Below are positions 3,433-61,953 of a stretch of 64,000 bases of DNA, in pieces; position 1 is the first letter of the stretch; each line of letters begins with the position of its first letter. The stretch covers positions 416,001-480,000 of the forward strand of contig OX638340.1 of the NCBI GenBank assembly GCA_951812955.1. The letters are read 5' to 3'. The translations under genes and the position numbers were made by a program. The stretch comes from an uncultured Gemmatimonadota bacterium. Lineage in GTDB: Bacteria; JAAXHH01. The notes under the pieces were generated by a model, which ran no database searches, was not told the origin of the DNA, and worked only from the letters and a program-made list of their open reading frames with translations.

Positions 3433-3454
3433 GTTAAAACTCCAGATAAACCCC

Positions 3455-3483: not shown

Positions 3484-3610
3484 TTCTAGGCTTTGCGCCA
3501 GCGGTCGGATCCGCTGTCCGTTCGGCGTTTAGCCAGCACGATACACAGCGGTTTAAGGCGGTTTCTAACCGGCGAATTACTCGACGAAACTTCGCAGGAG
3601 GTCCGGGTCG

Positions 3611-9508: not shown

Positions 9509-9703
9509 TCAGCCGTCCTTCGAGGTAGACGAACCTGACGTATTCTGATTCTCTTCGGCGGGCTCTTTCTTCTGTGCTTTCTTGAATTCGGTGATCCCCT
9601 GGCCCAATCCCTTGGCCAGTTCAGGGAGCTTCTTCGCGCCAAATAGGACCATGACGATTACAAGAATAATAATCAGTTCGGTCGTGCCGAAACTACCGAG
9701 CAT
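9509..9703 (-). CDS. tatA: Twin-arginine translocase subunit TatA/E
   Basis: 64 aa. An N-terminal TM helix followed by an amphipathic helix ([30 protein letters not shown]) is the TatA hallmark. A perfect GAGGAGG RBS is present. Confidence 0.85.
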
Positions 9704-22314: not shown

Positions 22315-24654
22315 TCAACGCGGCATGATCGTAAGCCGATGCCCCGCAATGCCTTCCACCGCTTCTCGACTGAACGCCAGCGGAAGATATTCGTCCTCCG
22401 CCCAGGTTTCCAGCAGGCTGCCGTAGTATGGGCTTTCCGGCTGACCCGACTGACCCGGCGTGATGATGAAGACCGAGCGGTCCCAGTCGTCGGTGTCCAG
22501 GATATGGCGGAAGCTCACCGACGTGGCGGCGATGGTGCCGTAGCCACCGGACCGCTCCACGGCGGGCAATGAGAAGGCGTCCGTCACGAGATGGGTGAAT
22601 GGGCTTCTCTGCAGCCGACCGTACCGCCACTGGTCCCAGTTCTCCCCCAGTTCCCCTTTCAACCGGTCCACGGTCTTGCGCAGGCCTGCTTCGATGAGCG
22701 GCTGTCGTTCCTCAGTTGGAGTCTCCGGATCGAATGCGGCCGATTCGGCTTCGCCCCGCCAGCGGTACCACACTGCCGCGCCGGCGCTGTCCCGGTCCAG
22801 CACGCCATTCCAGCCTGCGACCAGTCCGCGGGCCCGTTCGACTTCGGCGTCGTCCGACACCCAGCCTCGGAACGACGGGATATCTGCCTCTGCGCGCAGC
22901 GAATAGGCGTCCAACTGGATACGCTTGTGGTCGTCGACGGTGTACTTGCGGTTGGATTGCAGCAGTTGCTTCATGCGTTCTATCCGGGAGTATTCGACGC
23001 CTCGCGAGGAGTGGAACATGACCGGCCGGCCCTCGTAGTCCGGCGGGTGGGAATCGTTGTTCGCGGACCCTACCCAGCCGCGCTGGGGGTTGTACTCCCG
23101 GGGCAAGTCTTCCCTAAACCCCTGCCACTCGTATCGCCCGTCACCCGGGACCGGCAGCCGGCCATTCCATCCGTCTCGGTCCGGCGTAAGGGCCGAGACC
23201 TGGAAGGCGATATTGCCCTCCACGTCGCCGAATACCAGGTTGTGGGTAGGCACCTTCCAGAACATGGCGCGTTCGAAAAAGTCCTCCGCGCTCTCCGCCT
23301 GGGCCATGCGGAAGCATCCCAGGTAGGGGGCCGTGCCCGGTTCGTGGGTGATGGAACGCACGGCGTAGGCCACGCCGTTGTCCGGGTCCTCGTAGAACAC
23401 CGGTCCGTGCCGGCTATACTTGAGCACGACCTCGCGGGGCTCTTCGCCCTTCACCGGGATCTCCTCCCGAATGACGCGGAGAGGTTCCCAGCCGTCCTGC
23501 CACCGCACCATGTCGGGCTGGTCCGGGTGCAGCGCTTCCACGTACACGTCGTTCACGTCGACCCCCGCGAAGGTGAATCCCCAGGCGACCCGGTCGTTGT
23601 GTCCGGCGTTCACGCCCACGAAGGGCGGCTCGCTCGCTCCGATCATGTTCCAGCCCGGGGCGTTCAGATGGGCATAGTATCTCAGCGACGGATTCTCGAG
23701 CCGGCGGTGGGGATCGTTGACGACCATGACCTGGCCCGTGATGGACAGGGCGCCGCTTACGGCCCAGTTGTTGCTGCCGATCTCGAGCAACTGCTCTTCC
23801 GTGGGCGCTTCGGCCTGGCGGTCCGCGGGTACAAGACCTGTATACGGCTCGACGAGTTCAAGCTGCGGAAGCCGTCCGGGCACCAGGGGATCACCCTCCC
23901 CTTTTCGCATCGCGGCCACGATATCCTCATGGACGAGGGTCACGTCCAGTCCTTCTGGCACCACGAGGTCATCCCACGGCAATGGCGCCGCCCGGCGATT
24001 GGCCTCCTCGACGCCGAGTTCCGCCACGGACCGGGCCAGCCGGATCTCGTCCCCGGCGTCGTTTCCCGCGCTTGGGAAGAAGAGTCCGGTCCAGCGCCGC
24101 ACCACGGTCTCTTTGGTCCACCGGCCGGGCTGAATGCCCGTCAGCTTGAACTCCACCGGCAGGTTGTCGGCATGCGCGTCTATAAACGCGTTGACGCCGT
24201 TTGCGTAGGCGGTGAAGATCCGCTCGCCCTCGGCGTGGTAGCTTGTCCATTCGCGCTCGTCAAAGGGGCCGCGGTACATCATGAGCCGCGTGCGGGCATC
24301 ATAGTCGAAGGCCTCGGGACCAAAGATCTCCGCGAGACGTCCCTCCCGCCACCGGCGCCACAGCTCCATCTGCCACAGGCGGTCCTGGGCCATCACGTAA
24401 CCCTGGGCGAAGAAGAGGTCGTCCGTGTTCTGCGCGTAGATGTGCGGAATGCCGTGCTGATCGCGGATCACTTCCACCGGCTCGTTCAGACCATCCAGCG
24501 CCAGTTCGCCCTCGATCTGGGAGAGGGATTCGCGGGCCAAGGACAGAAGCTGCTCGTCGGAATCAGCCATTTCGACCTCCTCGCCGCATCCCGTGATCAT
24601 CAGGGGAACAACGAAAAGCACCGCGCAAAAGTAGATGAAGTGAGAAATCGTCAT
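22315..24654 (-). CDS. Penicillin acylase family Ntn-hydrolase (penicillin amidase / AHL-acylase-like)
   Basis: 779 aa with a signal peptide. The beta-subunit N-terminal nucleophile motif GSNNWAVSG is characteristic of the PGA/PvdQ family. Confidence 0.85.
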   Translation of the reverse strand: MTISHFIYFCAVLFVVPLMITGCGEEVEMADSDEQLLSLARESLSQIEGELALDGLNEPVEVIRDQHGIPHIYAQNTDDLFFAQGYVMAQDRLWQMELWRRWREGRLAEIFGPEAFDYDARTRLMMYRGPFDEREWTSYHAEGERIFTAYANGVNAFIDAHADNLPVEFKLTGIQPGRWTKETVVRRWTGLFFPSAGNDAGDEIRLARSVAELGVEEANRRAAPLPWDDLVVPEGLDVTLVHEDIVAAMRKGEGDPLVPGRLPQLELVEPYTGLVPADRQAEAPTEEQLLEIGSNNWAVSGALSITGQVMVVNDPHRRLENPSLRYYAHLNAPGWNMIGASEPPFVGVNAGHNDRVAWGFTFAGVDVNDVYVEALHPDQPDMVRWQDGWEPLRVIREEIPVKGEEPREVVLKYSRHGPVFYEDPDNGVAYAVRSITHEPGTAPYLGCFRMAQAESAEDFFERAMFWKVPTHNLVFGDVEGNIAFQVSALTPDRDGWNGRLPVPGDGRYEWQGFREDLPREYNPQRGWVGSANNDSHPPDYEGRPVMFHSSRGVEYSRIERMKQLLQSNRKYTVDDHKRIQLDAYSLRAEADIPSFRGWVSDDAEVERARGLVAGWNGVLDRDSAGAAVWYRWRGEAESAAFDPETPTEERQPLIEAGLRKTVDRLKGELGENWDQWRYGRLQRSPFTHLVTDAFSLPAVERSGGYGTIAATSVSFRHILDTDDWDRSVFIITPGQSGQPESPYYGSLLETWAEDEYLPLAFSREAVEGIAGHRLTIMPR

Positions 24655-26777: not shown

Positions 26778-27833
26778 ATGTCGAATAAACGTCCTCAGGT
26801 ACTCATCGCATGCAGCGAACGCGTCCGAAATGGATACATGCCGCCAAAGGAACTGGCCCGTCTCGAGGAGTTTGCCGATTGGACATGGTTCCACTGCGAG
26901 GGCGGCGGGATCTACGATACCAGTTCGGATCCCGAGACCACGGTGCAACTGGCGAAGGAAATGGCCGGGGTGGACGCGCTCGTCGTCTGCCACGGCGCGC
27001 CGAGGGTTGGCGCCGAAGTCCTGGATGCCGCGCCGCGGCTCCGTTTTGTCGGCGAACTGGAAGGAGACCGTTTCGCCGCGCGGCTTGACCTGGAATCGAT
27101 GTGGTCCCGTGGCATCAGCACGATAGATACGACCAACGGCTCCACCTATCCGGTAGCGGAATGGGCCCTGGGGCTGACGCTGATCTCCATGCGCAATGCC
27201 GGGGCACTCTTTCGTAGGATCATCGAACGCAATACGCAGGATCGTGATCTCATTCAGCCCATGGCGGGCATCCTTACCGGCAAAAGAGTGGGATTGATCG
27301 GCGGCGGGCACATGGGACGGCGGCTGATGAAGCTGCTACGACCCTTCGATGTGGAATTGTGGGTCCATGATCCGTACCTGCCGCAGGAATTGCCCGAAGC
27401 GCTGGGATTCCTGCAGACCTCGCTGGACAATGTGCTTTCCAAGTGCAACGCGATCATCTGCGTGGCGCCCCTCACGCCGAAGACCCAGGGCATGATCGGG
27501 CAGCGCGAACTGGACCTCATCCCTTCTGGCTCGGTGTTCGTGAATGTTTCGCGGGGGCCGATCGTCGACTCGGCAGCCCTGATCGAGCGCCTCAAGCGCA
27601 ATGATATCGCCGCGGGGCTGGACGTTTTCGATCCGGAGCCCATCCCCGAAGACAGCGAAATCATCGGCCTGCCCAATGTTTTCCTGACACCCCACTTCTC
27701 CGGACGCACGGGTGAAGAATACCCCCACTTCTTCGGCTTCATGGTCGATGAACTGGAACGGTTCTTCTCCGGTCACGAGACCTGGTTCAACCTGACGCCG
27801 CGATCGAAAGCCAACCGCGAGGGACAATCGTGA
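26778..27833 (+). CDS. D-isomer-specific 2-hydroxyacid dehydrogenase family protein (NAD-binding)
   Basis: The GLIGGGHMGRR Rossmann motif is present. The catalytic region has the conserved R, E/D, H arrangement (VNVSRGPIVD...HFSG). Confidence 0.8.
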   Translation: MSNKRPQVLIACSERVRNGYMPPKELARLEEFADWTWFHCEGGGIYDTSSDPETTVQLAKEMAGVDALVVCHGAPRVGAEVLDAAPRLRFVGELEGDRFAARLDLESMWSRGISTIDTTNGSTYPVAEWALGLTLISMRNAGALFRRIIERNTQDRDLIQPMAGILTGKRVGLIGGGHMGRRLMKLLRPFDVELWVHDPYLPQELPEALGFLQTSLDNVLSKCNAIICVAPLTPKTQGMIGQRELDLIPSGSVFVNVSRGPIVDSAALIERLKRNDIAAGLDVFDPEPIPEDSEIIGLPNVFLTPHFSGRTGEEYPHFFGFMVDELERFFSGHETWFNLTPRSKANREGQS

Positions 27834-29269
27834 CACGACCCAATCTGCTCTACATTTTCACTGACCAGCAGCGTGCCGACACGCTGGCCTGCTACGGCAA
27901 TCACCAGATTGAAACCCCTGCGCTCAACAGACTGGCCGAGGACAGTTTCGTCTTCGAAAACGCCTACGTGAGCCAGCCCGTATGCAGTCCGGCCCGGGCA
28001 ACCATGCTTACCGGCCTCTGGCCCCACACGGCGGGCGTCCCGTCCTGCAACGTACCGCTGGCCTGCGACAAGCCGACCATCGCCGAGATGCTTCCGGCGG
28101 AATACGATACGGCCTTCATGGGGAAGTGGCACCTGGGAGACGAGATCTTCCCCCAGCACGGCTTTAAGACCTGGGTGGGTACGGAAGACCAATATCGAAG
28201 CGGATACTCGGAAACGGATCGGTTGGCCGAAGTCAGCGACTATCATCACTTCCTCGTGGATAAGGGGCACACGCCCGACATCGAGCTGCTGGGACAAAGG
28301 GTTTTTTCGAGACACTATGCGGCGTCCCTGCCCGAGGAATCCACCAAGGCATGGTACCTGGGCGAACGGGCGGCCGACTACATCAATAATCAGGGCGACG
28401 ACCCCTTCACCCTGTGCGTCAGCTACCTGGAACCCCATCCTCCGCACACCGGTCCGTTGAACGACTTCTACAACCCGGACAGCCTGCCGACCGGGCCGGC
28501 CTTCATGCGGCAGCCACCCTTCGACGCACCGCTTCTCGTCCGTTTGATGGCGGCCTTCTACATGCAGTCGGAGAACTACGGACTGGATCTGCGGACCGAG
28601 GCGGGCTGGCGGGCCTTGATGGCACGGTACTGGGGCAACGTTACCCTGGTGGACCGTTCGGTGGGGAGGATTTTGAAAGCCCTCGAAGAAAGCGGCAAGG
28701 CCGATGACACCATCGTCGTGTTCACTTCGGACCACGGAGAGTTGATGGGCGATCATGGCATCCTAGGCAAGACGCTCATGTACGAGGAGTCCATCAAGGT
28801 GCCGATGTTGCTGCGCGCGCCCATGCTGGATCACGAATCGCGACAAATCGGCGGCCGGTTCAGCCATATCGACCTCGTGCCCACCCTGATGGAGTTATTG
28901 GGCCTCGAGCGACCGGACAGGTTGCAAGGTCGAAGCCGCGTGCCCGTGCTGCAGGGGCACGAGAACCTGGATAATGATGATGTGTTCGTCGAGTGGAGCG
29001 GAGAGGACGGCCATGCGCGGGCCGGACTTGGGGAAGCCGAACCGAACCAGAGCATGGTGCATCAGAACCGGACGATCGTGACCGCGGAGGGATGGAAACT
29101 CAACCTGTACGGAAAAGGGCAGGGAGAGCTGTACGATTTGAACAACGATCCCTGTGAATTGGTGAACCTGTTTCATCGGGGTGAGCAGGCGGGACGGATC
29201 GGAGATCTGACGCAGCGGATTCGGGCGTGGCAGGAGGAGACTGGGGATGGGGTGGAGTTGGGGGTATAG
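27830..29269 (+). CDS. Sulfatase (formylglycine-dependent, arylsulfatase family)
   Basis: The CSPARATMLTG motif (C-x-P-x-R) is present, and the N-terminal LLYIFTDQQRAD is typical of sulfatases. The GTG start overlaps the upstream stop (GTGA). Confidence 0.85.
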   Translation: MTRPNLLYIFTDQQRADTLACYGNHQIETPALNRLAEDSFVFENAYVSQPVCSPARATMLTGLWPHTAGVPSCNVPLACDKPTIAEMLPAEYDTAFMGKWHLGDEIFPQHGFKTWVGTEDQYRSGYSETDRLAEVSDYHHFLVDKGHTPDIELLGQRVFSRHYAASLPEESTKAWYLGERAADYINNQGDDPFTLCVSYLEPHPPHTGPLNDFYNPDSLPTGPAFMRQPPFDAPLLVRLMAAFYMQSENYGLDLRTEAGWRALMARYWGNVTLVDRSVGRILKALEESGKADDTIVVFTSDHGELMGDHGILGKTLMYEESIKVPMLLRAPMLDHESRQIGGRFSHIDLVPTLMELLGLERPDRLQGRSRVPVLQGHENLDNDDVFVEWSGEDGHARAGLGEAEPNQSMVHQNRTIVTAEGWKLNLYGKGQGELYDLNNDPCELVNLFHRGEQAGRIGDLTQRIRAWQEETGDGVELGV

Positions 29270-30211: not shown

Positions 30212-31429
30212 CTAGGGCCTTACGATGCTGCCATCCGCCCTCCGGTCCTCCGCGGCATAGCGCGGCATAGCCGCATCCTCTGCGTCCAGCAACCTGGCCG
30301 CTGCGTCCTCGTCGATGTCCAGCCCCAATCCCGGATTGTCGTTCGCGTAGAGATGCCCGTCCGCCAGCACGCACGCCCCGGGGAACGCCGCGTATTCCGA
30401 TTCGCTGAAGGTGTTCTCTTCCTGGATCCCGAAGCTCCAGCTTGACATGTCGAGATGAACGGCCGCGGCCTGGTTGACCGGGTCGTTGTCTCCCCCTTCC
30501 TGCCAGGCCGTGTTGATGCCGAAGGATTCGCACAGGTTCGCGATCTTCCGGCACGGGGTGATGCCGCCCGCCTTGGAAACCCGTACCCGGACGTAATCGA
30601 TCAGGCGCTCGGTGATGAGGGGCGTCCATTCGTGGGGATTCACGAAGAGTTCGCCCATGGCCTGCGGCGTCGTGCATTGCTCCCGAATCAGGCGGTACCA
30701 CTGGACCTGCTCGGGGGACAGGACGTCCTCCAGAAAGAACAGGCGGTAGGGTTCGAGGCGCTTGGACAGGGCGACAGCGGACTGGGGCCGCAGGTGCTCG
30801 TGGACGTCATGGGTCAGTTTGGGGCCGAATCCGAGCTTCGAGCGCAGATACTCGAACATGTTCGGAATGGCCTCGATGTAGGCCTCGTCGTCGAAGACCT
30901 GGTCTGCGGGCCAGGCGTTGGCGGGGCGAGGTGCGTCTTCCGATGGAATGAACCCCCCGCCGCCGTAACCACCCAGCTGGCAGCGGACCACAGGAAACCC
31001 TTCATCAAGGTAGCCCTGTATGGCTTCCAGCAGGGTTTCGGGGGTACCACCGCCCGCGTGGGCGTAGCAGGGGACGGCGCTCCGGCAAGCGCCGCCCAGG
31101 AGCTGGTAGACGGGCATCCCCGCCTCCTTGCCCTTGATGTCCCACAGCGCCATGTCGATGCCGCTCAGAGCCGTGTTGGTGATGGCCCCGTTCCGCCAGT
31201 ACCCGCTCGTGTAGAAGGTCTGCCAGATGTCCTCGATGCGGCTGACGTCGCGGCCGATGAGTTTCGGGGCCAGCATGGACTCGATGGCCTCGATGACGGC
31301 GCCCTGGTGGTAGTGGTCGCTCGCCGATCCGATGCCGTGCAGTCCGGGCTGGTTCGTGGTGATCTTGACGATGCCCCAGGTTCCGTTCGATCGCGTCCGG
31401 ATACACTTCACCCCGGTGATGGTGGTCAC
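30212..31429 (-). CDS. Enolase-superfamily dehydratase, mandelate racemase subgroup (D-mannonate / D-galactonate dehydratase ManD-like)
   Basis: 405 aa. The N-terminal capping domain (ITGVKCIRTRSNGTWGIVKITTNQPGLHGIG) and the barrel-domain metal ligands are typical of the ManD family. Confidence 0.8.
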   Translation of the reverse strand: MTTITGVKCIRTRSNGTWGIVKITTNQPGLHGIGSASDHYHQGAVIEAIESMLAPKLIGRDVSRIEDIWQTFYTSGYWRNGAITNTALSGIDMALWDIKGKEAGMPVYQLLGGACRSAVPCYAHAGGGTPETLLEAIQGYLDEGFPVVRCQLGGYGGGGFIPSEDAPRPANAWPADQVFDDEAYIEAIPNMFEYLRSKLGFGPKLTHDVHEHLRPQSAVALSKRLEPYRLFFLEDVLSPEQVQWYRLIREQCTTPQAMGELFVNPHEWTPLITERLIDYVRVRVSKAGGITPCRKIANLCESFGINTAWQEGGDNDPVNQAAAVHLDMSSWSFGIQEENTFSESEYAAFPGACVLADGHLYANDNPGLGLDIDEDAAARLLDAEDAAMPRYAAEDRRADGSIVRP

Positions 31430-31522
31430 GTTCCGCTCCTTGGATTGCGGTGTAGTTGCAGTCGCACGGCTTGTGTTGAATCTGTGTTGGACCAGTGTTT
31501 CGGATGCTACGGGCTACGGTGT

Positions 31523-32293
31523 CTAATCGGCCGTTACCCGCTCGCCGTCCATGAGAAAGGGCTCCGCGTTGCTCCAGTTTCGTGTCCCGTCCTCTGTGAG
31601 GATCGGTTCCGCCGAGTACTGGGTCAGGTATACGCGACGCCAGCCGTCTGAGGTATTCGTACTGCTTCTGTGGAAGGAGACGCTGGAGAATACCAGGATA
31701 CTTCCGGCCGGCGCGACCACCGGTATGCCGGGATCATCGCCGTAATAGCCTATCTTGTCGTTGGATTCATCCAGGATGCTGTGTTCCTGCCGGTGCCGGG
31801 TCCCCGCACGGGAGAAGGGCAGGACATAGACCGTGCCGTTTTCCTCGTTCACGTCGTCCAGGGCGGCCCAGCAGCTCATGTAGGGCCGGTGGTCGAATCC
31901 CACGTAGCCCGAATCCTGGTGCCAGCCGAACTTCATGCCGACTTCGGGTCCCTTCACCACGAACTGCTCATGGAACAGGTAGGCGGTGGGTCCCAGGGTG
32001 CTCCGGCAGATTTCGGCCATGAGATCGCTGAAAATGTACGGACGCAGGCTGGGGTTCTCCCGGTGCCGATTGGAAACGAAGTACCTCTTGCCCTTGTGAT
32101 TGATTCCCCGTGTGGTCTCGTCTGCCTCGGCCATCTGGGCTTCCATTTCCTCGGTCAGCCGATCGCACTCGCCGCGTATGTACGCCAGCATCGCGTCGTC
32201 CATGGCCGACTCGAGGATGAAGTACCCTTCCTCTTGGTACTGCTCTTTCTGTTCTACCGTTATTTCGACAGGTTGCGCCTTGGTTTCCGTCAT
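31523..32293 (-). CDS. Phytanoyl-CoA dioxygenase (PhyH) family protein, third copy
   Basis: 256 aa. The WHQD...H motif is typical of PhyH-family Fe/2OG oxygenases. Confidence 0.7.
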   Translation of the reverse strand: MTETKAQPVEITVEQKEQYQEEGYFILESAMDDAMLAYIRGECDRLTEEMEAQMAEADETTRGINHKGKRYFVSNRHRENPSLRPYIFSDLMAEICRSTLGPTAYLFHEQFVVKGPEVGMKFGWHQDSGYVGFDHRPYMSCWAALDDVNEENGTVYVLPFSRAGTRHRQEHSILDESNDKIGYYGDDPGIPVVAPAGSILVFSSVSFHRSSTNTSDGWRRVYLTQYSAEPILTEDGTRNWSNAEPFLMDGERVTAD

Positions 32294-33051
32294 TATCCCC
32301 GTCCTATGTAGGGCATGGTCGTCGCCATGACTGTTATGAACTGTACGTTGGCGTCAAGGGACAAACCGGCCATGAAGACGATGGCGTCGGCCACGTTCTT
32401 CACGTGCATCCGCGCCTCGGCCACCAGGTCGCCGCTCGGCTGCAGGATGCCCTCTTTCATCCGCTCCGTCATTTCCGTGGCCGCGTTGCCGATGTCGATC
32501 TGGCCGCAGGCGATGTTGTATTTCCGGCCATCGAGGGAAGTCGAACGCGTCAAACCGGTTACGGCGTGTTTCGTAGCCGTGTACGGCGCCGAATTCGGCC
32601 GCGGCACCTGGGCGGAAACCGACCCGTTGTTGATGATCCGGCCGCCTTGCGGGTCCTGGTCCTTCATGATCTTGAAGGCTTCCCTGGTACAAAGGAAGGA
32701 ACCGGTCAGGTTGACGTCCACCACGGTCTGCCACTGTTCGGCCGTCAGTTCCTCTAGGAGTACCGCGGGCGCGCCGGTTCCCGCATTGTTGAACAGCAAG
32801 TCCAGCCGTCCGTAGGCCGCCTTTGTTTCGGCGAAGAGACGTTCGACCTGCGAAGCATCGCCCACGTCCGTTGGGACGACGACCAGTCGATCCGCGGCGT
32901 CGCCGGCTTCGGTCACGGTCGACTCCAAAGCTTCCCTTCTCCTTCCAGCAAGTACCACGCTGAAGCCCGCGTCAAGCAGGGCGAGGGAACAGGCCTTGCC
33001 TATCCCGGAACCCGCCCCGGTCACTACGGCGACTTTCTTACCTGCGCTCAT
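32293..33051 (-). CDS. Short-chain dehydrogenase/reductase (SDR)
   Basis: The TGAGSGIG cofactor motif and the YxxxK catalytic motif (YTATKHAV) are present. Confidence 0.85.
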
Positions 33052-33278
33052 GCTGTGCTCCTATCTCAGGTGTAGATACAATGTTTATACGTCCCTCAGT
33101 TAATTTTACATCCATTTGGTTCTCGGTTATTCGTCCATCAGTTTACCGGGTATATACGTCGATCATCGCTATGGTCATGCTGTTTGTCGATTCGTCTCTG
33201 CAACTAACAAATCCGGGATGGCTCCTGCAATCTTTTTTCACGAATACGGGTCCGCTGCGTCATGCTCGGCATCATACA

Positions 33279-34352
33279 TCACGAATACGGATCCGCTGCG
33301 TCGCGCAAGGCGTCTCCCAGGAAGTTGAAGGCTATGACGACGACCAGGACGGGGGCTGCGGGAAACAGCAGCCATGGATGGTTGAGCAGCACGGTCACCC
33401 GCTGCGCTTCCTCGAGCAGGACGCCCCAGCTGGTCATGGGAGGCCGGATGCCCAGTCCGAGAAAACTCAGGGCGGTTTCGCCCAGGATCATGCCGGGGAT
33501 GGCCAGTGTGGCCACGACGATGATGTGGCTGTAGCACCCGGGCATCAGGTGGCGCGAGATGATGTACCAGTGTCCCGCGCCAGCAGACCGCGCTGCCGTG
33601 GTGTAATCCTGTTCCCGGAAAACGAGGACCTTGCCCCGGACTTCGCGCGCCAGGCCGCCCCAGCTGATGATGGACAGGATGATGGTGATGCCCAGGTAGG
33701 TTTCGATACTCGTCCACCCGGCCGGTAGCGCAGCCCCGAGGGCCATCCAGAGCGGAATTGGCGGAAAAGACGCCAGGATTTCGACGACACGCTGCAGGGC
33801 GTGGTCTATCCAGCCACCGAAGTACCCTGACAGCGTGCCCAGGACGGAGCCCAGGATCAGGCTGAGGAAAACGCCGATGATTCCTACCGTGAGGGAGACC
33901 CGGGCGCCGTGGAAGATGCGCGAGAGCAGGTCGCGCCCCATGCGGTCCGTACCGAGCAGGTACATGGGACCCGCTGAATGGACCAGCCGGAAGTCTCCGC
34001 CCCCGTCACGCGACAGAAACCGGACCGGGAACCGTTGAGAACGGTCCGTCTCGTACTCCAGTTCCAGCGTTTCCGGGTTCTGCGTGGAAGTCAGTCCGTT
34101 GACGTAGAACCCGGCGGACCAGTCGAAATGCAAATCCTGGGGTGGAAGATATCGGACCTGGATCCGGATGTCGTTGTGGTCGTACGGGGAGAAAAAACCG
34201 GCGAATAACGCCACCAGGTAGAACAGTCCCAGGATCGCCCCCGCCGCGATCCCCATGCGGTTCTTCCGGAACCGACGCCAAATCAGCGTGCGGTAGCTCA
34301 GATAGCCCGCATCCCGGACCGTTTCTGCCTGATCGACCGTGGTCGTAGTCAT
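33279..34352 (-). CDS. Peptide/nickel ABC transporter permease (DppC/OppC type)
   Basis: It has the BPD_transp_1 core with an N-terminal OppC extension. Other dpp genes flank it. Confidence 0.85.
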   Translation of the reverse strand: MTTTTVDQAETVRDAGYLSYRTLIWRRFRKNRMGIAAGAILGLFYLVALFAGFFSPYDHNDIRIQVRYLPPQDLHFDWSAGFYVNGLTSTQNPETLELEYETDRSQRFPVRFLSRDGGGDFRLVHSAGPMYLLGTDRMGRDLLSRIFHGARVSLTVGIIGVFLSLILGSVLGTLSGYFGGWIDHALQRVVEILASFPPIPLWMALGAALPAGWTSIETYLGITIILSIISWGGLAREVRGKVLVFREQDYTTAARSAGAGHWYIISRHLMPGCYSHIIVVATLAIPGMILGETALSFLGLGIRPPMTSWGVLLEEAQRVTVLLNHPWLLFPAAPVLVVVIAFNFLGDALRDAADPYS

Positions 34353-34356
34353 GGGT

Positions 34357-34440
34357 TTGCTCCGCTTGCGCCGCTTACTCCGAGAACGCTTGCTCCGCTT
34401 GTTCCGCTTAGTCCGCTTGCTCCGCTTTGTCCGCGAACGC
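34357..34440. repeat. Array of about eight imperfect 9-bp tandem repeats (minus-strand unit CAAGCGGAG) in the dppB-dppC intergenic space
   Basis: The plus strand reads gctccgcttg cgccgcttac tccgagaacgcttg ctccgcttg ttccgctta gtccgcttg ctccgcttt gtccgcg. It contains in-frame stops, so it is untranslated. It sits inside an operon. Confidence 0.5.
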
Positions 34441-34466
34441 TGCCATTCATTAAAAGGCCAACTGCA

Positions 34467-35453
34467 CTAGTCATATCGTATCCTCGGATCCGCCCAGGCC
34501 AGCGCGATGTCGGCCAGGATATTGCCGATGATCAGAAGCAGGCTGAACATCATCAGCAGGGTACCCGCCAGGTAAATGTCCTCGGCGACCAGGGCCCGTA
34601 GCAGCAGCGGCCCCACGGTAGGCAATCCCAGGACGATCGCCACGATCGTGGCCCCGGAGAGGATGTTGGGCAGGCTCATGCCCAGGATCGTGATCAGCGG
34701 ATTGATGGCGATGCGCGCCGCGTGCTTTATGACGACGACGGATTCCTTAAGGCCCTTGGCGCGGGCTGTCTGCACGAAAGGCTGGCCCAGGACGTCCAGC
34801 AGGTTGCCGCGCATGATACGCATGAGCCCGGCCGTGCCGTTGATGCCCACCACGATGACCGGGATCCAGAGGTGCTTCAGGAAATCGACAAGCTTGTCCC
34901 ATGTCCATGGCGCTCCTTCGTACTCGCTCGAGAAAAGCCCGAACAAGGGTATCCTGTAGATCTCGAACACGAAGACCAGGAGGGCCAGGGCCAGCAGGAA
35001 ACCCGGCATGGACATGCCGATGAAGCTGATGAAGGACAGCACGTTGTCGGATAGACGGTACTGGTGGGTGGCCGAGTAGATACCGATGGGTATCGCCACG
35101 GCGTAGGTGAACATCAGGGCGCCCAGGGCGATGAGCACGGTAAAGGCAAGCCGGTCCCAGATCAGCTGGTTGACTTCCTGCTCGTATTCGAAGGACTCGC
35201 CGAAATCGCCCACGACGAACCCTGATATCCAGTCCACGTACTGCCGCCACATGGGCTGGTCCAGGCCGTAACGTTCGCGAAGTTCATCGATGCGCGCGAT
35301 GGAGCTGCTGTCACCGTACATTTCTTCCAGCTCCTGGATCTTGCGGTCCAGGAAATCACCCTCCGGCAACTGGATGATGACGAACCCTATCATCGATATG
35401 GCCAGGAGGGTCGGGATGGCGAGGAGACAGCGCTGTATGACGTAATGGATCAT
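34467..35453 (-). CDS. Peptide ABC transporter permease (DppB/OppB type)
   Basis: 328 aa. The typical N-terminal TM helix plus BPD_transp_1 domain are present. Confidence 0.85.
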   Translation of the reverse strand: MIHYVIQRCLLAIPTLLAISMIGFVIIQLPEGDFLDRKIQELEEMYGDSSSIARIDELRERYGLDQPMWRQYVDWISGFVVGDFGESFEYEQEVNQLIWDRLAFTVLIALGALMFTYAVAIPIGIYSATHQYRLSDNVLSFISFIGMSMPGFLLALALLVFVFEIYRIPLFGLFSSEYEGAPWTWDKLVDFLKHLWIPVIVVGINGTAGLMRIMRGNLLDVLGQPFVQTARAKGLKESVVVIKHAARIAINPLITILGMSLPNILSGATIVAIVLGLPTVGPLLLRALVAEDIYLAGTLLMMFSLLLIIGNILADIALAWADPRIRYD

Positions 35454-35518
35454 GGGTTAACCAGGGGACAGGCCGCGGTCCATGGACTGCCCGGCATGCG
35501 GTATGTGTGATCATCCCT

Positions 35519-37477
35519 TCAGTCGATGTAAAACTGCTCGGGGAAACTCGTCGCGGGACCCGCGATGGCCCACGGGCCGAGTATTCCGCTGTCGGGTACG
35601 TTATGGAAGTTGTTCTTCACGATGACGGGCTTGGGCGTACGAGCTACCGTGCCCAGATGAAAGGGTCCATGTTCGATGTGGATCCGCACGGCGTCCTGTA
35701 CCAGCCGATGACGGGCGTCCAGGTCCTTCTCCCGCTTGATCCGGTCGTAGATATCGAGCAGTGCGACCATGACGCCCGTGGGCGCCTCGCCCTTTTCGCC
35801 GCCCGTTTCGTACCACTTGCCCACCTTGGGATGCCAGTATTTCCCAGACGTTGGAAACACCCAGTCGGGGTAGGTGAACAGGTCCATTTCCGCCTCGCCG
35901 TGGAGATGGGCGGTGAACTCGCCGAGGTCGCGACGCAGTTTCAATTCGGCGCCGGGTGGCGTATAGACTAGGACGTCCAGTCCCAGTTCCCGCCAACCCT
36001 CGGCCACGATCAGGGCGACGTCATTCTCGTGGGCGATGTGCGCCGCCGCCGGCGCGTCCAGCACGAGGGTCAGCCGCTGGCCATCGGGACGAACCCGGTA
36101 CCCTTCGGCGTCACGGCGGGTAAGCCCCATCTCGTCGAGCAGCCTGTTCGCCATTTCCAAGTCGAATTCCGCGTCGGTAGCCTTCCACAGGTCGAAGAGC
36201 CGTGCGCCCTCCGTGTCCAGGAAATGCCAGCCTTCCTCGCTCACGGTGGCGCCCTGGGGCTCCACCAGGCCCTTGAAGGCGACGGCGTTGCATTTCTCGC
36301 GGTCGATGGCCGCGGCGAGGGCCTTCCGGAATCGCTGGTCTCGTATCAGGCCGCGGAGGACCGGGTCGTTGTCCGACCAGTTGAGGTTGATCGCGGGATC
36401 CGCGCCGGATGCACTCTCCCACAATTTGACCCGGTATCCGCCCTTTTCCCGGCTTTCCATGAAGAGCGAGAAGTCCCGCAGGTCGAGATCACGGAACTGG
36501 CAGTCCACTTCTCCGGCCAGCACCCGCAGGACCCGGATCTGAGACTCAGGGACCAGGGTCGTAACCACCCTGTCGATATAAGGCAACTGGCGCCCGTTGT
36601 CATCCACGACGTAGTAGTAGGGGTTGCGTTCCAGGATCACCCGGAATCCGCCCTTCTCGATGCGGGAGATCGTCCACGGCCACAGGGAAGGCTTTTCCGG
36701 GTTGCGCTGGGGCAGCCTGTGCTTCTCGTATAACACGAAGTCGTCCACCCCGGCGTTGTGGTCCGGATGGAACTGCTTCATGTAGTGTTCCGGCACGTTA
36801 TACTCTTCGCTCCACCAGAAGCCGGTCGCCAGCCACAGGGGCACGAGCCAGTTGGGCCCGGCGAATTTCATGACGATGGTGTAGTCGTCCGGTGTTTCCA
36901 CCTCCATGGGCTTGCCGTCCACGAGACACCACACGGGCGGCGGGTAACGGTGTCGGTCGTCGAGACACAGGTCGTACCACGCGCGGAAGGAAGCCGAAGT
37001 AAAGGGATGGCCATCGGACCACCGCACGCCCTCACGCAGTTTGAGGGTCAGCGCCGTGCCGTCCTCGTTAAACGCCCACGATTCCGCCAGGCCGGGCTCG
37101 AGGCCCGTGGTCATCCGGTTCCAACGGATCAGCGGGGCGTATCCGGCGATCATCTTCCAGGTGCCGAGGTCCGTATTGTTGTGCAATTGACGCCAGGTCC
37201 CGCCGTAGACTCCGGGACCATCGTACCCTTCGTAATCATTTTTGGCCACGAGCGGGTTGGCGGGGATCCGTTCGTGAAGGGGCGGCAGGTTGCCCTCAGC
37301 TACCCGGGCGGCCAGTTGTGGCGCTTCCAGCGACGAGCGGGCCGATGCGTCGGAAACCGGTACGTCCGATGCGGGTCCGCCGCCATTGCCGGTACAGGCC
37401 AGCAGTCCGGTCAGGGCAATAAGAGGCAGGTAATTCAGTATCTCTCTCGTTCTTCGTCTCATCCGTGACTCCAACAA
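35519..37477 (-). CDS. ABC transporter substrate-binding protein, family 5 (oligopeptide/dipeptide-binding)
   Basis: 652 aa with a signal peptide and lipobox-like LLACTG. It has SBP_bac_5 architecture. Confidence 0.85.
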   Translation of the reverse strand: MLESRMRRRTREILNYLPLIALTGLLACTGNGGGPASDVPVSDASARSSLEAPQLAARVAEGNLPPLHERIPANPLVAKNDYEGYDGPGVYGGTWRQLHNNTDLGTWKMIAGYAPLIRWNRMTTGLEPGLAESWAFNEDGTALTLKLREGVRWSDGHPFTSASFRAWYDLCLDDRHRYPPPVWCLVDGKPMEVETPDDYTIVMKFAGPNWLVPLWLATGFWWSEEYNVPEHYMKQFHPDHNAGVDDFVLYEKHRLPQRNPEKPSLWPWTISRIEKGGFRVILERNPYYYVVDDNGRQLPYIDRVVTTLVPESQIRVLRVLAGEVDCQFRDLDLRDFSLFMESREKGGYRVKLWESASGADPAINLNWSDNDPVLRGLIRDQRFRKALAAAIDREKCNAVAFKGLVEPQGATVSEEGWHFLDTEGARLFDLWKATDAEFDLEMANRLLDEMGLTRRDAEGYRVRPDGQRLTLVLDAPAAAHIAHENDVALIVAEGWRELGLDVLVYTPPGAELKLRRDLGEFTAHLHGEAEMDLFTYPDWVFPTSGKYWHPKVGKWYETGGEKGEAPTGVMVALLDIYDRIKREKDLDARHRLVQDAVRIHIEHGPFHLGTVARTPKPVIVKNNFHNVPDSGILGPWAIAGPATSFPEQFYID

Positions 37478-37493
37478 TCGAATTTTTGGCCGG

Positions 37494-38492
37494 TCAAACG
37501 CCCTGGAGAGACAGCGTGTCGCTGTAATGGCACGCCGCTTCGACGCCTCCGGGGTAGGTCTTCAGCGGGGGATCGGACTCCCGGCACAGGTCGGTTGCGT
37601 ATCGACACCTCGGATGGAAATAGCACCCTTTCGGCGGCGATGCGGGATCGGGCACGTCGCCGGGCAGGGCGATGCGCTTCCGTTTCTTCTGCACCGCGGG
37701 ATCGGCCACCGGCACGGCGGAGATCAGGGCCTCCGTGTATGGGTGGAGCGGGTTGTGGTAGACCTGTTCGGAGGGACCCGTTTCCACGATCCGGCCCAGG
37801 TACATGATCGCCACCCGGTCGCTGATGTGCTGCAGCACGCTCAGGTCGTGCGTGATGAAGATATAGGACAGGTCCAGGCGGTCCTTGAGCGAGACAAGCA
37901 GGTTCAGAATCTGTGACTGGACCGATACGTCCAGCGCCGATACGGGTTCGTCCGCTATGACCAGTTCCGGCCTCAGGGAAAGAGCCCGGGCGATGCCGAT
38001 GCGCTGGCGCTGGCCACCGCTGAAGGCGTGAGGATAGCGTCGCATGTCCGCTGCGTTCAGTCCCACGTCCGCCAGCAAGCCGGCTACTTGGTCTTCCAGC
38101 TCCGACCCCCGGGCCAGCCCGTTCACACGAAGGGGTTCCCCCACGATATCACCCACCGTCATCCGTGGATTGAGGGAGGAATTCGGATCCTGGAACACCA
38201 TCTGCATCCGGCGCCGGTAGGGCTTCATTCCACGCCGGTCAAGGGAGCTCAGATTCGCCTTCTCCGCACCGAAGTAAATATCGCCCTCCGTGGACGGGAT
38301 CGTCTTCAGCACGCAGCGTCCCAGGGTGGTCTTGCCGCAACCGCTTTCGCCCGCCAGTCCCAGGGTCTCCCCTGCGTCGCAGTGGAGATCCACGCCGTCC
38401 ACTGCCCGGACGTCGCCCCGCTTGCGGCGCCATAGCCCCTTGCGGACAGGGTAGTATTTCTTCAGGTTCCGCACCTCGAGAATGGTGGACAT
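37494..38492 (-). CDS. Peptide ABC transporter ATP-binding protein (DppF/OppF type)
   Basis: Walker A (GESGCGKTT), ABC signature ([15 protein letters not shown]) and Walker B are present, plus the C-terminal oligopeptide-transporter domain. The start is taken at MSTILEV (38492). The track's 38648 start adds an implausible Cys/Arg-rich extension. Confidence 0.8.
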
Positions 38493-38657
38493 GACGGGTG
38501 CTCCGTGGACATCTGCGTCTGGATGGATGAGGGCGCCGGTTGCTTCGAGGCCTGGTGGCGCTGCATGCTGGCGAACAAAACGGCAATCGCCGAAACACAG
38601 GTGGCCGGTCCTGCAAGCGGCCTGCCCACAAGCGGCCCGGGCCCGCAAACGGTCGGC

Positions 38658-39662
38658 CTATCGATCCAGAGCTACGCGTTCAACGTGCCAGCACCGTGCG
38701 CGGTGCCCTTCTGTAATTTCCTCTAACATTGGTTCCGTGGTGCACTGCTCCGTGGCGTACCGGCAACGAGGCGCGAATGCGCAGCCCTTCGGCAAGTTGA
38801 GCGGCGAGGGAACCGTACCCGGTATCGTAGACAGCATGGATGCCCTTTCTCGATTTATCCGCGGCGCCGAATCGAGCAGTCCCCTGGTATACGGATGGGC
38901 AGGATGGTAGAAGATCCTTTCGGGCGAGCCGGTTTCGACCACCTGCCCAGCGTACATGATCATGATTTCGTCGGCCATGTCGGCGATCACCCCCAGGTCG
39001 TGTGTGATCATCAGGATGGCCATATTATGGCTTTTCTGGAGTTCTCTCAGCAGGTCGAGGATCTGGGCCTGGATCGTCACGTCCAGCGCCGTGGTGGGCT
39101 CGTCGGCGATCAGCAGTTCGGGACCGCACGACAGGGCCATGGCGATCATGGCGCGCTGCCGCATGCCGCCGGACAATTCGTGGGGGTACTCATCCACCCG
39201 CTGCCGCGCACCGGGTATGCCGACCTCGGAAAGGGCCTGCACCGCGCGGGAACGGGCATGCTCCCGGTCCATGCCGTGGTGCAGGCGGAGGGCTTCGCCT
39301 ATCTGGTTCCCCACGGTGTATACCGGGTTGAGGGCGGTCATGGGTTCCTGGAAGATCATGGCGATTTTTCGGCCCCGGATTCTCCGCATTTCATCGCCAT
39401 TCTGCTCGAGATCGTGAATCCCGATGCCTGAACCGCCTTCCCGATCGTGAAGAACGATCTCTCCTTCCACGTAACCCGGTCTGGGAACCAGGCGCATCAG
39501 GGACAGCCCCATCATGCTCTTGCCGCAGCCGCTTTCACCGACCACACCGAGTGTTCTGCCTCGCCTGATCTGAAACGAAACGTCGCGCACGGCCCGGACG
39601 GGACCGTCGTCTGTGGGGATTATGGCGGACAGGTGCGATATATCGAGAAGGAGGTCGTGCAT
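38658..39662 (-). CDS. Peptide ABC transporter ATP-binding protein (DppD/OppD type)
   Basis: Walker A (GESGCGKS), signature LSGGMRQRAMIAMAL and Walker B are present. Confidence 0.85.
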   Translation of the reverse strand: MHDLLLDISHLSAIIPTDDGPVRAVRDVSFQIRRGRTLGVVGESGCGKSMMGLSLMRLVPRPGYVEGEIVLHDREGGSGIGIHDLEQNGDEMRRIRGRKIAMIFQEPMTALNPVYTVGNQIGEALRLHHGMDREHARSRAVQALSEVGIPGARQRVDEYPHELSGGMRQRAMIAMALSCGPELLIADEPTTALDVTIQAQILDLLRELQKSHNMAILMITHDLGVIADMADEIMIMYAGQVVETGSPERIFYHPAHPYTRGLLDSAPRINRERASMLSTIPGTVPSPLNLPKGCAFAPRCRYATEQCTTEPMLEEITEGHRARCWHVERVALDR

Positions 39663-39828
39663 ACAAGTTCATTGTAACGCCCTGTTCGAAGGGATGTCAA
39701 GGTGTACGGACGGTGGAGGCAGTGTAATTTTGAAGAAACCGGGGCGCTGGTTTGTAAGACTTAAAACTGTATTCTCTCATTCAACCCAAACGGATCTACC
39801 AGGTCTGGATTTATTCAAGGAGTCGAAT

Positions 39829-41079
39829 ATGCATGTGTCAGAAACAGCCCGGAATGCCTGGACACGTCGAGGATTCATGAAGGGCGCGCTCGCCGCCGGA
39901 ACGGCCGGTGTCGCACTGTCCATGTCAGACAGGATTGCGATGGCCACGCAGTTGATCACGGGCGGAAAGCCCACAATCGAAGCCATCCGGGGCGTAGGCG
40001 TCCAGCCTGGTCTCGTTCGCATGAGCCTGAATGAGAATCCGCTGGGACCGTCGCCGCGGGCCATCGAAGCCATGGCGAACCGGTTGTTCGGCGTCAACCG
40101 CTATGGTACGGACCTGAGCGATCTGATGCAGGCCCTGTCGACCTTCGACGGGGTGGAACTGCCCGAGCCGGACAATTCAAGGCGGCGCTCGTTTTTCCGT
40201 CCGCCTCCCGGCCCATTCATGCTGACCCCGGGATCCAGTCTTATCCTCGACCTGCTGTGCCTGGCCTATCTCAGCCGCGACGGCGGCGAAGTCATCGAAG
40301 CGGAGTATGGCTACGGGTCCGTTTCCCGATCCGCCAGTGGTTTCAATGATATGTTCGGCGTCGACGTCAACATCATCCGGGCGCCGATGACACAGGAATA
40401 CAAGCACGACCTGGACGGGATGGCTTCCCTGGCATCCGAAAAGACCTCTCTGGTGGTCATCACCAATCCGAACAATCCCACGGGCACGTTGCTGCAGCCC
40501 GATGAAATCGAAGCTTTCGTCAAAAAGGTCCCTTCTTCGGCCATCGTGGTCATCGACGAGGCCTATCTGCACTTCGCGGAGCAGGACCCGATTCCCTCGG
40601 CCATCCCGCTCGCCGTCAAGTACGACAACGTGGTCGTGGTGAGAACCTTCTCCAAGGCCTACGCGCTCGCCGCTGTGAGACTGGGTTACTGTGTTGCCTC
40701 GCAAAAGGTCCAGGACGAATTGCGGAAGTACTACCAGGAATCTCCGAATGCCCTGGCCAGCGTGGCCGGCGCCGCAGCTGTGCGCGATCTCGAGCATCTT
40801 CAGAAGTCCAGAGAAGCCGTATGGGACTTCAAAAAGCGCTGTTACGCAGCCTTCGACGAGATGGGGATCGAGTACCTGCCGTCCCAGGGTACCTTCGTGA
40901 TGGCCGACCTGAAGCGGTCGGCGATGCAGGTAGTCAGGGAAATGCGGACACGTAACGTCTGGATAAGTTCCCGACGCCAGCAGGAATTTAGAAACTGGAT
41001 CAGGGTTTCCGCCGGTACCGAAGCGGAAACCGAGGTATTCATCCAGACCCTCAAGGACGTGCTGGCCAAGTCCAGCTAA
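39829..41079 (+). CDS. PLP-dependent class I/II aminotransferase (histidinol-phosphate aminotransferase-like) carrying an N-terminal twin-arginine (Tat) signal peptide
   Basis: ATG 39829 has an AAGGAG RBS. The N-terminus TRRGFMKGALAAGTAGVALSMSDRIAMA is a textbook S/T-RRxFLK Tat motif plus h-region plus AxA site. The mature domain has the class-I aminotransferase pattern with the conserved Lys in TFSKAYALA. Confidence 0.75.
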   Translation: MHVSETARNAWTRRGFMKGALAAGTAGVALSMSDRIAMATQLITGGKPTIEAIRGVGVQPGLVRMSLNENPLGPSPRAIEAMANRLFGVNRYGTDLSDLMQALSTFDGVELPEPDNSRRRSFFRPPPGPFMLTPGSSLILDLLCLAYLSRDGGEVIEAEYGYGSVSRSASGFNDMFGVDVNIIRAPMTQEYKHDLDGMASLASEKTSLVVITNPNNPTGTLLQPDEIEAFVKKVPSSAIVVIDEAYLHFAEQDPIPSAIPLAVKYDNVVVVRTFSKAYALAAVRLGYCVASQKVQDELRKYYQESPNALASVAGAAAVRDLEHLQKSREAVWDFKKRCYAAFDEMGIEYLPSQGTFVMADLKRSAMQVVREMRTRNVWISSRRQQEFRNWIRVSAGTEAETEVFIQTLKDVLAKSS

Positions 41080-41116
41080 GGCCTTTTCGGAATAGGCCTT
41101 GTTTTATTTGATGAGA

Positions 41117-41155
41117 AAGCCCAGCGGTGTGGTCGCCGCTGGGCTTTAGTTTTCG
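41117..41155. terminator. Strong intrinsic terminator (bidirectional) between the Tat-aminotransferase and APH-like genes
   Basis: A perfect 12-bp stem aaagcccagcgg / ccgctgggcttt has a 7-nt loop. It is followed by agttttcg. Confidence 0.6.
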
Positions 41156-41180: not shown

Positions 41181-41953
41181 CTATTTCATAAGGTTCCTGG
41201 ACTCCACCCTCAACCAGTCTCTCTCGCGCTTGATGGTCTCCAGGTCACCTCTTCTGTAAAAGAAGCTCCACGGTTCGATTCCTCTCCTTCCAAACGTGGA
41301 TATCCTCTCTATCTCCGATTCCTGGAGATCAAGAAGCACCTGGATGATGCGACTTGGAAAGAAACCTCCGTAGGCTTCGCAAAGCACATTTAGTCTATCT
41401 CTCAATACAGGCGGTTCTTCGTAGCCGACCTTCCGCCAGGATTCGCTGCCGCGCGCAGGGGTACAAGATACCAGGCGATCTGTGCCAAATCTGTCACAGC
41501 CTCACCCGGTTCGGCGAAATCCCAGTCTATTACGCCCTGCAGCACGCCATCATGCCAAATTGTGTTCCAGGGGCCGAGATCGCCATGACGTATAATCAGA
41601 CCAGGCTGCCACTTCACATCCGGCGCACACCATTCGGTTTCTTCGGGAGGGACGTAATCTTTCACCGCGAGATGGTAGGATTTGAGAAACCCGGCCAACT
41701 GGCTCAGGCCGCTATCGGTCTTGAGTACTTCGGGCCAGGGTCTTAAGCCGGCTTTACCTTCGATGTAGGACAGTTCTTCGTACCCGTCTTTTAAGTCTGC
41801 AACACGTGGAACGCGTCCAAGACCGGCATCTTCAAGAAATCTGAGCAAGCCGTGCACCGCCGATGTCCATCGGTTCACCGGGCGTCGTACCAGACTCCCA
41901 ATGTGTTCGACGGTGTTCAAGGCACCGCGATTCATGTCGCGACCAGAAGTCAT
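41181..41953 (-). pseudogene. Aminoglycoside/homoserine-kinase-type phosphotransferase (APH family), split by a frameshift near 41402-41405
   Basis: ORF 41953..41402 (183 aa, APH N-lobe-like) and ORF 41405..41181 (74 aa, C-terminal continuation) overlap by 4 nt in different frames. The combined length of about 257 aa fits the family. This could be an authentic pseudogene or a sequencing indel. Confidence 0.45.
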
Positions 41954-61876: not shown

Positions 61877-61953
61877 CGGCGCTTGCGCCAAGGGAAACCC
61901 GAGACGGTAATCCAGGTCTTGCGGGTGATCCGATATTATCGAAAGGAAGCAAC

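Follow-up and report, generated by a model that had tools for sequence, protein, structure and literature searches.

A likely Tat-exported HisC-like transaminase encoded head-to-head with an Opp-type importer in a Gemmatimonadota contig

Background

Why should an aminotransferase resembling histidinol-phosphate aminotransferase (HisC) begin with what looks like a twin-arginine translocation (Tat) signal peptide, and is such an enzyme really destined for the periplasm? This question is raised by a protein encoded in a 64,000-nucleotide stretch of an uncultured Gemmatimonadota bacterium (contig OX638340.1, positions 416,001 to 480,000), referred to here as the window. A preliminary description had proposed that it is a periplasmic transaminase, and had placed its gene at coordinates that coincide exactly with the open reading frame (ORF):

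39829..41079, plus strand: aminotransferase coding sequence, 416 aa, predicted Tat signal plus HisC-fold pyridoxal 5'-phosphate (PLP) enzyme; ATG at 39829, TAA at 41077-41079

Of periplasmic PLP transaminases, essentially a single case, PtaA, has been characterised. The analysis presented here suggests that the window protein is likely a further Tat-dependent periplasmic HisC-like transaminase, belonging to an uncharacterised subfamily. The reading is carried by a signal peptide that is conserved among distant homologues, by an intact PLP site from which the residues specific to HisC have been lost, and by the conserved arrangement of the gene with an Opp-type importer.

Results

A conserved twin-arginine signal peptide

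The features that define the N-terminus of the protein are the following:

39817..39822, plus strand: Shine-Dalgarno sequence AAGGAG, read from the sequence, 6 nt 5' of the ATG
39829..39945, plus strand: predicted Tat signal peptide, residues 1-39, from the TIGR01409 match, the n/h/c anatomy, the predicted local distance difference test (pLDDT) and the invariant A39
39862..39882, plus strand: twin-arginine motif T12-R-R-G-F-M-K18, from homologue conservation

The N-terminus reads MHVSETARNAWTRRGFMKGALAAGTAGVALSMSDRIAMA, followed by TQLITGG, and has the three parts of an export signal. The n-region (residues 1-18, net charge +3) ends in TRRGFMK; the h-region, GALAAGTAGVALSM (residues 19-32, 14 residues), is Gly/Ala-rich with a mean Kyte-Doolittle value of 1.43; and the c-region, SDRIAMA, carries Arg at -5 and A-x-A at -3/-1, so that signal peptidase I would be predicted to cleave between AMA and TQ, after Ala39. 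As a formal Tat test, residues 1-46 were scanned against NCBIfam, and TIGR01409 (TAT_signal_seq) matched residues 11-31 (E 1.5e-5), its 25.1 bits exceeding the curated cut-off of 16.7. The Tat consensus claimed in the preliminary description therefore stands, together with the h-region and the A-x-A site that it listed. When all six frames of the 64-kb window were searched for RR motifs near an ORF start with an uncharged hydrophobic stretch behind them, no other candidate came up, and consequently the motif is not a compositional commonplace of this window, whose G+C content is 60.6%.

Conservation was followed in the best 120 matches from 5.8 billion proteins (37-93% identity), of which 115 (38-91% identity) were kept after dropping five fragments. 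The RR-x-phi-phi motif was found in 106 of these 115, about 62-67 residues ahead of the LNENP motif, and in a 45-member alignment reaching down to 37% identity R13, R14, F16 and A39 were invariant while the residues ahead of the RR motif varied freely. One apparent exception (P0019), on a 1.2-kb contig, arises because its start was wrongly placed at the Met within RRGFMKG. Three relatives (P0102, P0104, P0114) have no signal at all, and five others (P0093-97, P0100) have a more hydrophobic, Sec-type signal, for instance MKKQIRWLKGLIVIGVALVMGTHLALAQS, whose maximum 10-residue hydrophobicity window is 2.0-3.25, where the Tat-type proteins average 1.85. This exchange of a Tat for a Sec signal in a sister clade would make little sense if the N-terminus were not an export signal. 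The survey of relatives that had been proposed as a check thus favours export: as judged from these alignments, the Tat signal is under selection, and the twin-arginine export signal is genuine and evolutionarily conserved.

On one contig of a metagenome-assembled genome (MAG; L005), three aminotransferase paralogues lie within about 6 kb (8001-9326, plus strand; 11361-12488, minus strand; 12879-14099, minus strand). They differ at the N-terminus: a Tat signal is present on one of them and a Sec-type signal (MKKQTQWLKRSVLVGVALVMGSQLALAQS) on another, and the remaining one lacks a signal. Export of a PLP enzyme by Sec would mean that it has to obtain its cofactor in the periplasm.

An extension absent from ordinary HisC

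The signal precedes the point at which cytoplasmic HisC begins. Position 17 of the TIGR01141 HisC profile aligns to residue 56 of the window protein, and residue 18 of PDB 3LY1 to residue 62; in a direct alignment E. coli HisC begins about 33 residues later, and the onset of E. coli HisC and TIGR01141 corresponds to about residue 40. Ordinary HisC genes retrieved in a contig search open with M...PY.PGKP...LASNENP and have no extension. In an AlphaFold2 model built from the 45-sequence alignment (mean pLDDT 85), the mature domain lies mostly above 90, whereas residues 1-32 score under 50. The N-terminal extension is therefore extra and ends where HisC starts, and the objection that the RR region might be part of a helix of cytoplasmic HisC is answered by ordinary HisC having no such region.

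The start codon bears directly on this result. The Shine-Dalgarno sequence and ATG lie in a stretch, ...GAGTCGAATATG, which is common to the window and to the orthologue of 90% identity (L001), so that both genes have the same ribosome-binding site (RBS) and ATG. The frame can also be read further upstream, from a GTG at 39613, but would then overlap the divergent oppD gene; L001 retains the RBS and ATG though its upstream sequence differs. Among downstream starts, only Met17 could plausibly eliminate the RR pair, leaving a Sec-like signal; it was rejected, being Leu or Ile in most homologues, and Met32 and Met38 are equally unconserved as starts. A true start downstream of the RR motif, which had been named as a possible refutation, is consequently excluded, with the RBS standing ahead of Met1.

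An intact PLP site without the HisC-specific residues

The enzyme domain is assigned to Pfam PF00155 (Aminotran_1_2) with 150.9 bits against a gathering cut-off of 19.7 (E 7e-44), and its AlphaFold2 model has as best structural neighbours the HisC-family structures 3FFH, 3LY1, 8BJ1 and 4R2N (TM-score about 0.72 on the query and 0.82-0.87 on the target), with 3FFH and 3LY1 at the top (0.72/0.87). The Schiff-base lysine is encoded as follows:

40654..40656, plus strand: codon of PLP Schiff-base lysine K276 (TFSKAY), equivalent to E. coli HisC K214; invariant in 113 members

A HisC-like enzyme with its Schiff-base Lys, as the preliminary description read it, is borne out by the family match, the fold and K276. 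The label "class-I" calls for more nuance: the protein is a PLP aminotransferase, and the Pfam family is described as "class I and II". PROSITE places HisC in class II, and structurally these enzymes are of fold-type I.

When the active-site residues of E. coli HisC were placed on 113 family members, they fell into two groups:

HisC Y55, window protein Y92: conserved
HisC N157, window protein N216: conserved
HisC D184, window protein D243: conserved
HisC Y187, window protein Y246: conserved
HisC S213, window protein S275: conserved
HisC K214, window protein K276: conserved
HisC R222, window protein R284: conserved
HisC R335, window protein R392: conserved
HisC Y20, window protein I50: A/I/V across the family
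HisC D85, window protein S137: G/S across the family
HisC R322, window protein S380: T/S across the family

Y20, D85 and R322, whose residue types were confirmed in the E. coli HisC sequence, are the residues that we take to contact the imidazole and phosphate of histidinol phosphate. A further difference from E. coli HisC is an insertion of about 20 residues at about residues 110-130, which is variable and modelled with lower confidence. The HisC equivalog model TIGR01141 gave 211.7 bits and did not reach its cut-off of 276.55. By this active-site comparison the window protein is not a histidinol-phosphate aminotransferase, and the automatic label "histidinol-phosphate aminotransferase" that many sources attach to its homologues is contradicted.

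The other named models were not reached either. The best-scoring curated one, PRK09105/NF006580, gave 220.9 bits against a cut-off of 444, and NF051461, the dedicated PtaA equivalog of NCBIfam, gave 169.6 bits, in two stretches, against a cut-off of 500; the model for CobD, a threonine-phosphate decarboxylase, gave 127 bits. Since the cut-offs for HisC, PtaA and PRK09105 are all missed, we place the protein in an uncharacterised subfamily that has no named equivalog. It is a PLP enzyme of the HisC fold and most likely a transaminase, with the carboxylate/phosphate-binding Arg retained.

Distribution of the family

The nearest named homologues are from Gemmatimonadetes MAGs, and the family as seen here occurs mostly in Gemmatimonadota-type marine MAGs. 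A metagenome contig search with the single protein found two loci only, at 99% (MKWU01001970.1) and 91% identity, neither of which added a new gene context. The first 135 residues, compared with 1.84 billion representatives, gave 124 matches at E <= 1e-3 and 20 at E <= 1e-10, many of them fragments, counts that are to be read as a rough lower bound on family size. A search of species-representative contigs with generic patterns (NPNNPTGT, NV..RTFSK) returned mostly cytoplasmic HisC at 30-35% identity, and no close orthologues among the matches listed. At least nine HisC-like genes with RR-type signals were also among the matches listed (L010, L013, L021, L032, L042, L049, L071, L079, L084), from Saprospiraceae/Flavobacteriia (Bacteroidota), Acidobacteriota and Gemmatimonadota, which indicates that exported HisC-fold enzymes would be phylogenetically widespread. 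Searching plasmids with tblastn gave ordinary hisC alone, with matches beginning at about residue 46 and no informative annotated context. Two contigs carry a pair of paralogues (P0004 with P0113; P0008 with P0059), and tblastn within the window detected no second paralogue of the aminotransferase.

A divergent Opp-type importer cluster

Upstream of the aminotransferase, and divergent from it, lies a cluster whose genes were assigned with Pfam and NCBIfam:

30212..39662, minus strand: the divergent cluster as a whole
38658..39662, minus strand: OppD
37494..38648, minus strand: OppF
35519..37477, minus strand: family-5 substrate-binding protein (SBP), lipoprotein-type, with a lipobox
34467..35453, minus strand: OppB
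33279..34352, minus strand: OppC
32293..33051, minus strand: short-chain dehydrogenase/reductase (SDR)
31523..32293, minus strand: PhyH dioxygenase
30212..31429, minus strand: ManD-like enolase-superfamily dehydratase
39671..39700, minus strand: candidate sigma-70-like promoter TTGACA-18-TACAAT facing the ABC operon, recognised by an 11/12 consensus match only

Orthologues of at least 60% identity, examined in five independent contexts, were always found head-to-head with an Opp-type ABC importer cluster: L001 (90%), L004 (63%), L089 (61%), L095 with L096 (62%) and the contig of P0025 (60%). The opposite flank varies among these loci, with APH and FtsH in one and an RND efflux pump in another. 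The TGTCAAG element, which is the -35 of the divergent promoter, recurs in five of six orthologous intergenic regions. A second Opp-like system lies downstream, at about 48.7-51.4 kb, and its adjacency to the aminotransferase is not conserved. The link to flanking Dpp/Opp systems made in the preliminary description thus keeps its upstream half, syntenic in five contexts, and loses its downstream one.

The other genes of the cluster bear on the possible substrate. In the orthologues of 60-63% identity the gene immediately divergent from the aminotransferase encodes a 372-aa enolase-superfamily member (L004 6623-7741, L089 6562-7680, L095 5871-6989, all on the minus strand), which scores 303-315 bits around the galactonate-dehydratase equivalog cut-off of 311. 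The window has no copy of this 372-aa enolase and has the ManD-like one at 30212..31429 instead. Peptide-derived substrates had been suggested earlier; they are disfavoured, because the enzymes of the cluster are acid-sugar-dehydratase-like (ManD/DgoD), PhyH and SDR proteins and not peptidases. As far as gene content can tell, these companions suggest sugar acids rather than peptides. Family-5 SBPs bind oligosaccharides, opines and metallophores as well. The SBP of the window has a lipobox, LTGLLAC followed by TGNGG, which in a diderm would make it a lipoprotein-type SBP. It is highly divergent from named SBPs (best match NikA, 84 bits against a cut-off of 393), and its TTG start is uncertain.

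More distant clades of the family have other neighbours. P0046 and P0065 have Porin_5, a PBP-like SBP, GFO_IDH_MocA and ceramidase genes upstream and Peptidase_S15, nitroreductase and DHDPS genes downstream, and P0030 and P0032 lie behind a short NAD-dependent epimerase/dehydrogenase. In a clade about 41% identical to the window protein (P0107, P0113), the aminotransferase gene begins 53-54 nt 3' of Gluconate_2-dh3 and GMC flavoprotein oxidoreductase genes on the same strand. Sets of Gluconate_2-dh3, GMC and Tat-aminotransferase genes stand at L007 5586-9272 and L092 5588-9272, and their arrangement resembles an operon in which periplasmic oxidation would precede transamination.

Termination, export machinery and the wider window

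At the 3' end, the gene faces a convergent APH-like gene across a gap with one feature:

41116..41147, no strand assigned: hairpin with a 14-bp stem and T-tract, found by a terminator scan in the convergent gap between the aminotransferase and the APH-like gene

The hairpin stem is kept in L001 (about 11285-11320) with paired substitutions, which suggests a functional bidirectional intrinsic terminator; lying between convergent genes, it would make the aminotransferase gene monocistronic. The convergent APH-family (PF01636) gene (41402..41953, minus strand) encodes 183 aa in the window and 255 aa in L001. A 2-bp insertion relative to L001 produces a frameshift and an early stop, and the later sequence is still similar, so that the shortened gene appears to be either a recent pseudogene or an assembly error. 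An Rfam scan of the whole window found no riboswitch or other RNA upstream of the aminotransferase.

A component of the export machinery, whose presence in the window the preliminary description had pointed out, is encoded about 30 kb away:

9509..9703, minus strand: tatA/E, 64 aa, recognised by the TatA hallmark sequence read directly

The gene stands alone, with no adjacent tatB or tatC in the window. The window also encodes a TonB-dependent receptor, and together the two genes imply a diderm host with at least part of a Tat system.

Elsewhere in the window, the ORFs at 22315..24654 (minus strand), 27830..29269 (plus), 13162..14748 (plus) and 61873..62766 (plus) encode a penicillin amidase, an SGSH_C sulfatase, a BCCT betaine/carnitine/choline transporter and a D-aminopeptidase (M55), and there are three GFO/IDH/MocA oxidoreductases. 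Such a set fits a scavenging heterotroph and the marine-metagenome contigs and samples in which close homologues were found. For two long ORFs, at 3434..4822 (minus strand, 461 aa) and 10575..13112 (plus strand, 845 aa), Pfam gave nothing at E <= 1e-5; in a sequence this rich in G+C they may be spurious.

Discussion

Proposed function and its weight

We propose that the window protein is folded, loaded with PLP and probably assembled into a dimer while still in the cytoplasm, that the TatABC translocase would then export it folded by means of the twin-arginine signal peptide, and that cleavage after Ala39 would free a soluble periplasmic enzyme. In the periplasm it would act as a transaminase with a ping-pong mechanism, its two partners being an amino compound and a 2-oxo acid bearing a carboxylate or a phosphate. 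This is the mechanism of PtaA, applied to a different substrate in a different phylum. In this lineage the aminotransferase gene is co-inherited, and probably co-regulated, with the divergent Opp-type ABC importer cluster. The simplest role for its product would be to turn an amino compound outside the cytoplasm into its oxo form, or the oxo form into the amino compound, for uptake and breakdown by the cluster; the reaction might, for instance, lead from an amino-aldonate or another amino acid derivative to a 2-oxo acid.

To this explanation as a whole, reaction type included, we assign a probability of roughly 0.72. That the protein is exported as a PLP enzyme we hold with somewhat greater confidence. 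Its specific coupling to the ABC/sugar-acid cluster is tentative, at rather less than even odds, and any particular substrate would be a good deal more doubtful than that.

Several observations weigh against this interpretation. No tatC was seen within the 64-kb window, and alignment of the six intergenic regions revealed no shared operator-like motif beyond the promoter-like TGTCAAG -35. The pairing of a family-5 SBP with acid-sugar dehydratases is unusual, and the substrate class that we propose is speculative. The distant paralogue clades sit in quite different neighbourhoods, and consequently context yields no function for the family as a whole. Finally, the mechanism would call for a periplasmic source of amino acceptor or donor, a problem that has been raised for PtaA as well, along with the recycling of pyridoxamine phosphate (PMP) in the periplasm (PMC6206403). 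Both PtaA and the window protein pose the question of how the amino acceptor or donor is supplied and PMP recycled outside the cytoplasm.

Alternative explanations

A periplasmic HisC-fold PLP enzyme might instead catalyse decarboxylation, like CobD, or beta/gamma-elimination, or, like PvdN, an oxidation. Such non-transaminase chemistry would require no periplasmic oxo-acid co-substrate, and PvdN is an example of unusual PLP chemistry in the periplasm (PMC6206403). The CobD model does recognise the window protein with 127 bits, CobD structures are close fold matches, and the active-site residues shared with HisC are also common to CobD. However, the HisC (212 bits), PRK09105 (221) and PtaA (170) models all outscore CobD, and PtaA, the only characterised exported member of the family, has been described as a "normal" transaminase (PMC6206403), so that we consider a non-transaminase reaction improbable. 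It is quite improbable, too, that the protein is exported by Tat and then stays attached, through a signal that is not cleaved, to the periplasmic side of the inner membrane, perhaps beside the ABC transporter. Such an anchor would agree with the AlphaFold2 model, where the h-region is helical and continuous with residues 13-44, and with the neighbouring SBP being itself membrane-tethered through its LLAC lipobox, but an A-x-A with a family-invariant Ala at -1 is a hallmark of cleavage by signal peptidase I, and the short, Gly/Ala-rich h-region, with its low mean hydropathy, would anchor poorly.

An ordinary cytoplasmic, biosynthetic HisC-type enzyme, in which the RR pair is fortuitous or belongs to a non-export helix, or whose start lies downstream, would be in keeping with the cytoplasmic location of almost all characterised HisC-family enzymes, with the name that homologues often bear, and with the three relatives devoid of a signal. 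Against this stand the TIGR01409 score above its cut-off, the tripartite signal conserved at 37-90% identity and the Sec signal of the sister clade; the lack of conservation of Met17, Met32 and Met38 and the RBS ahead of Met1; and the loss of the histidinol-phosphate residues, the missed HisC cut-off and the absence of the extension from ordinary HisC. We regard this explanation as highly improbable.

Wider significance

The locus presents the architecture of PtaA in a distant phylum, repeatedly linked to an ABC importer and to catabolic enzymes of the sugar-acid type, and this repeated link suggests that periplasmic transamination may serve nutrient acquisition besides the tailoring of siderophores. 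A broader reading, which we advance as unlikely but worth stating, is that the window protein belongs to a sizeable group of exported HisC-fold PLP enzymes that has radiated among marine Gemmatimonadota and in neighbouring phyla, with extracytoplasmic partners specific to each clade and with genomes that can hold more than one paralogue. The partner sets would be an Opp-type importer with ManD/DgoD-like dehydratases in the clade of the window, a porin with a PBP-type SBP, and a periplasmic Gluconate_2-dh3/GMC flavoprotein dehydrogenase directly upstream on the same strand. If this were true, the periplasm would host a metabolism of amino groups with 2-oxo sugar acids, amino-aldonates or similar compounds as its substrates, in which a periplasmic dehydrogenase could make a 2-oxo acid that is either aminated by the transaminase or serves as its long-sought amino acceptor.

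Comparison with known systems

In a full-text literature search for other exported aminotransferases, every paper retrieved led back to PtaA or PvdN. PvdN, which acts in pyoverdine tailoring, is likewise a PLP enzyme exported by Tat in folded form with its cofactor, but it belongs to a class V-like family and catalyses oxidative decarboxylation to succinamide, and is consequently an analogue in export logic only. E. coli HisC (b2021) shares the fold and the PLP-binding and catalytic residues of the window protein, and has neither its 39-residue Tat signal nor its insertion of about 20 residues. The PRK09105/NF006580 profile is matched from position 4 to 373 by residues 10-414 of the window protein, signal region included, and a member of that subfamily, 3LY1 (Pectobacterium atrosepticum YP_050345.1), is the best sequence match of solved structure (E 3e-32, about 26% identity); the PRK09105 subfamily is itself functionally uncharacterised, so that membership would give no function.

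The closest precedent is PtaA (P. fluorescens PflA506_4424, P. aeruginosa PA2531), a HisC-like transaminase exported by Tat in folded form with PLP bound, which turns the gamma-linked Glu of pyoverdine into 2-oxoglutarate and is also found in species that do not make pyoverdine (PMC6206403); the signal peptide of PA2531 has been validated experimentally with an amidase reporter (PMC6085387). The periplasmic transaminase implied by the preliminary description is supported as regards its Tat signal, and it is not unprecedented. Both proteins are HisC-like PF00155 PLP transaminases with a Tat signal, and both are predicted to fold and take up their cofactor in the cytoplasm before Tat exports them to act as transaminases in the periplasm. 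They differ in that the window protein comes from Gemmatimonadota-type marine MAGs rather than from Pseudomonas, that neither the window nor the orthologous loci contain non-ribosomal peptide synthetase or pvd genes, and that its gene is consistently accompanied by an Opp-type ABC importer and enzymes resembling acid-sugar dehydratases. Given these differences in host, pyoverdine genes and partner cluster, together with that in model score, the gamma-linked Glu of pyoverdine is not the substrate to be expected here, and PtaA would serve as a precedent for the architecture and mode of action of the window protein, acting on another compound.

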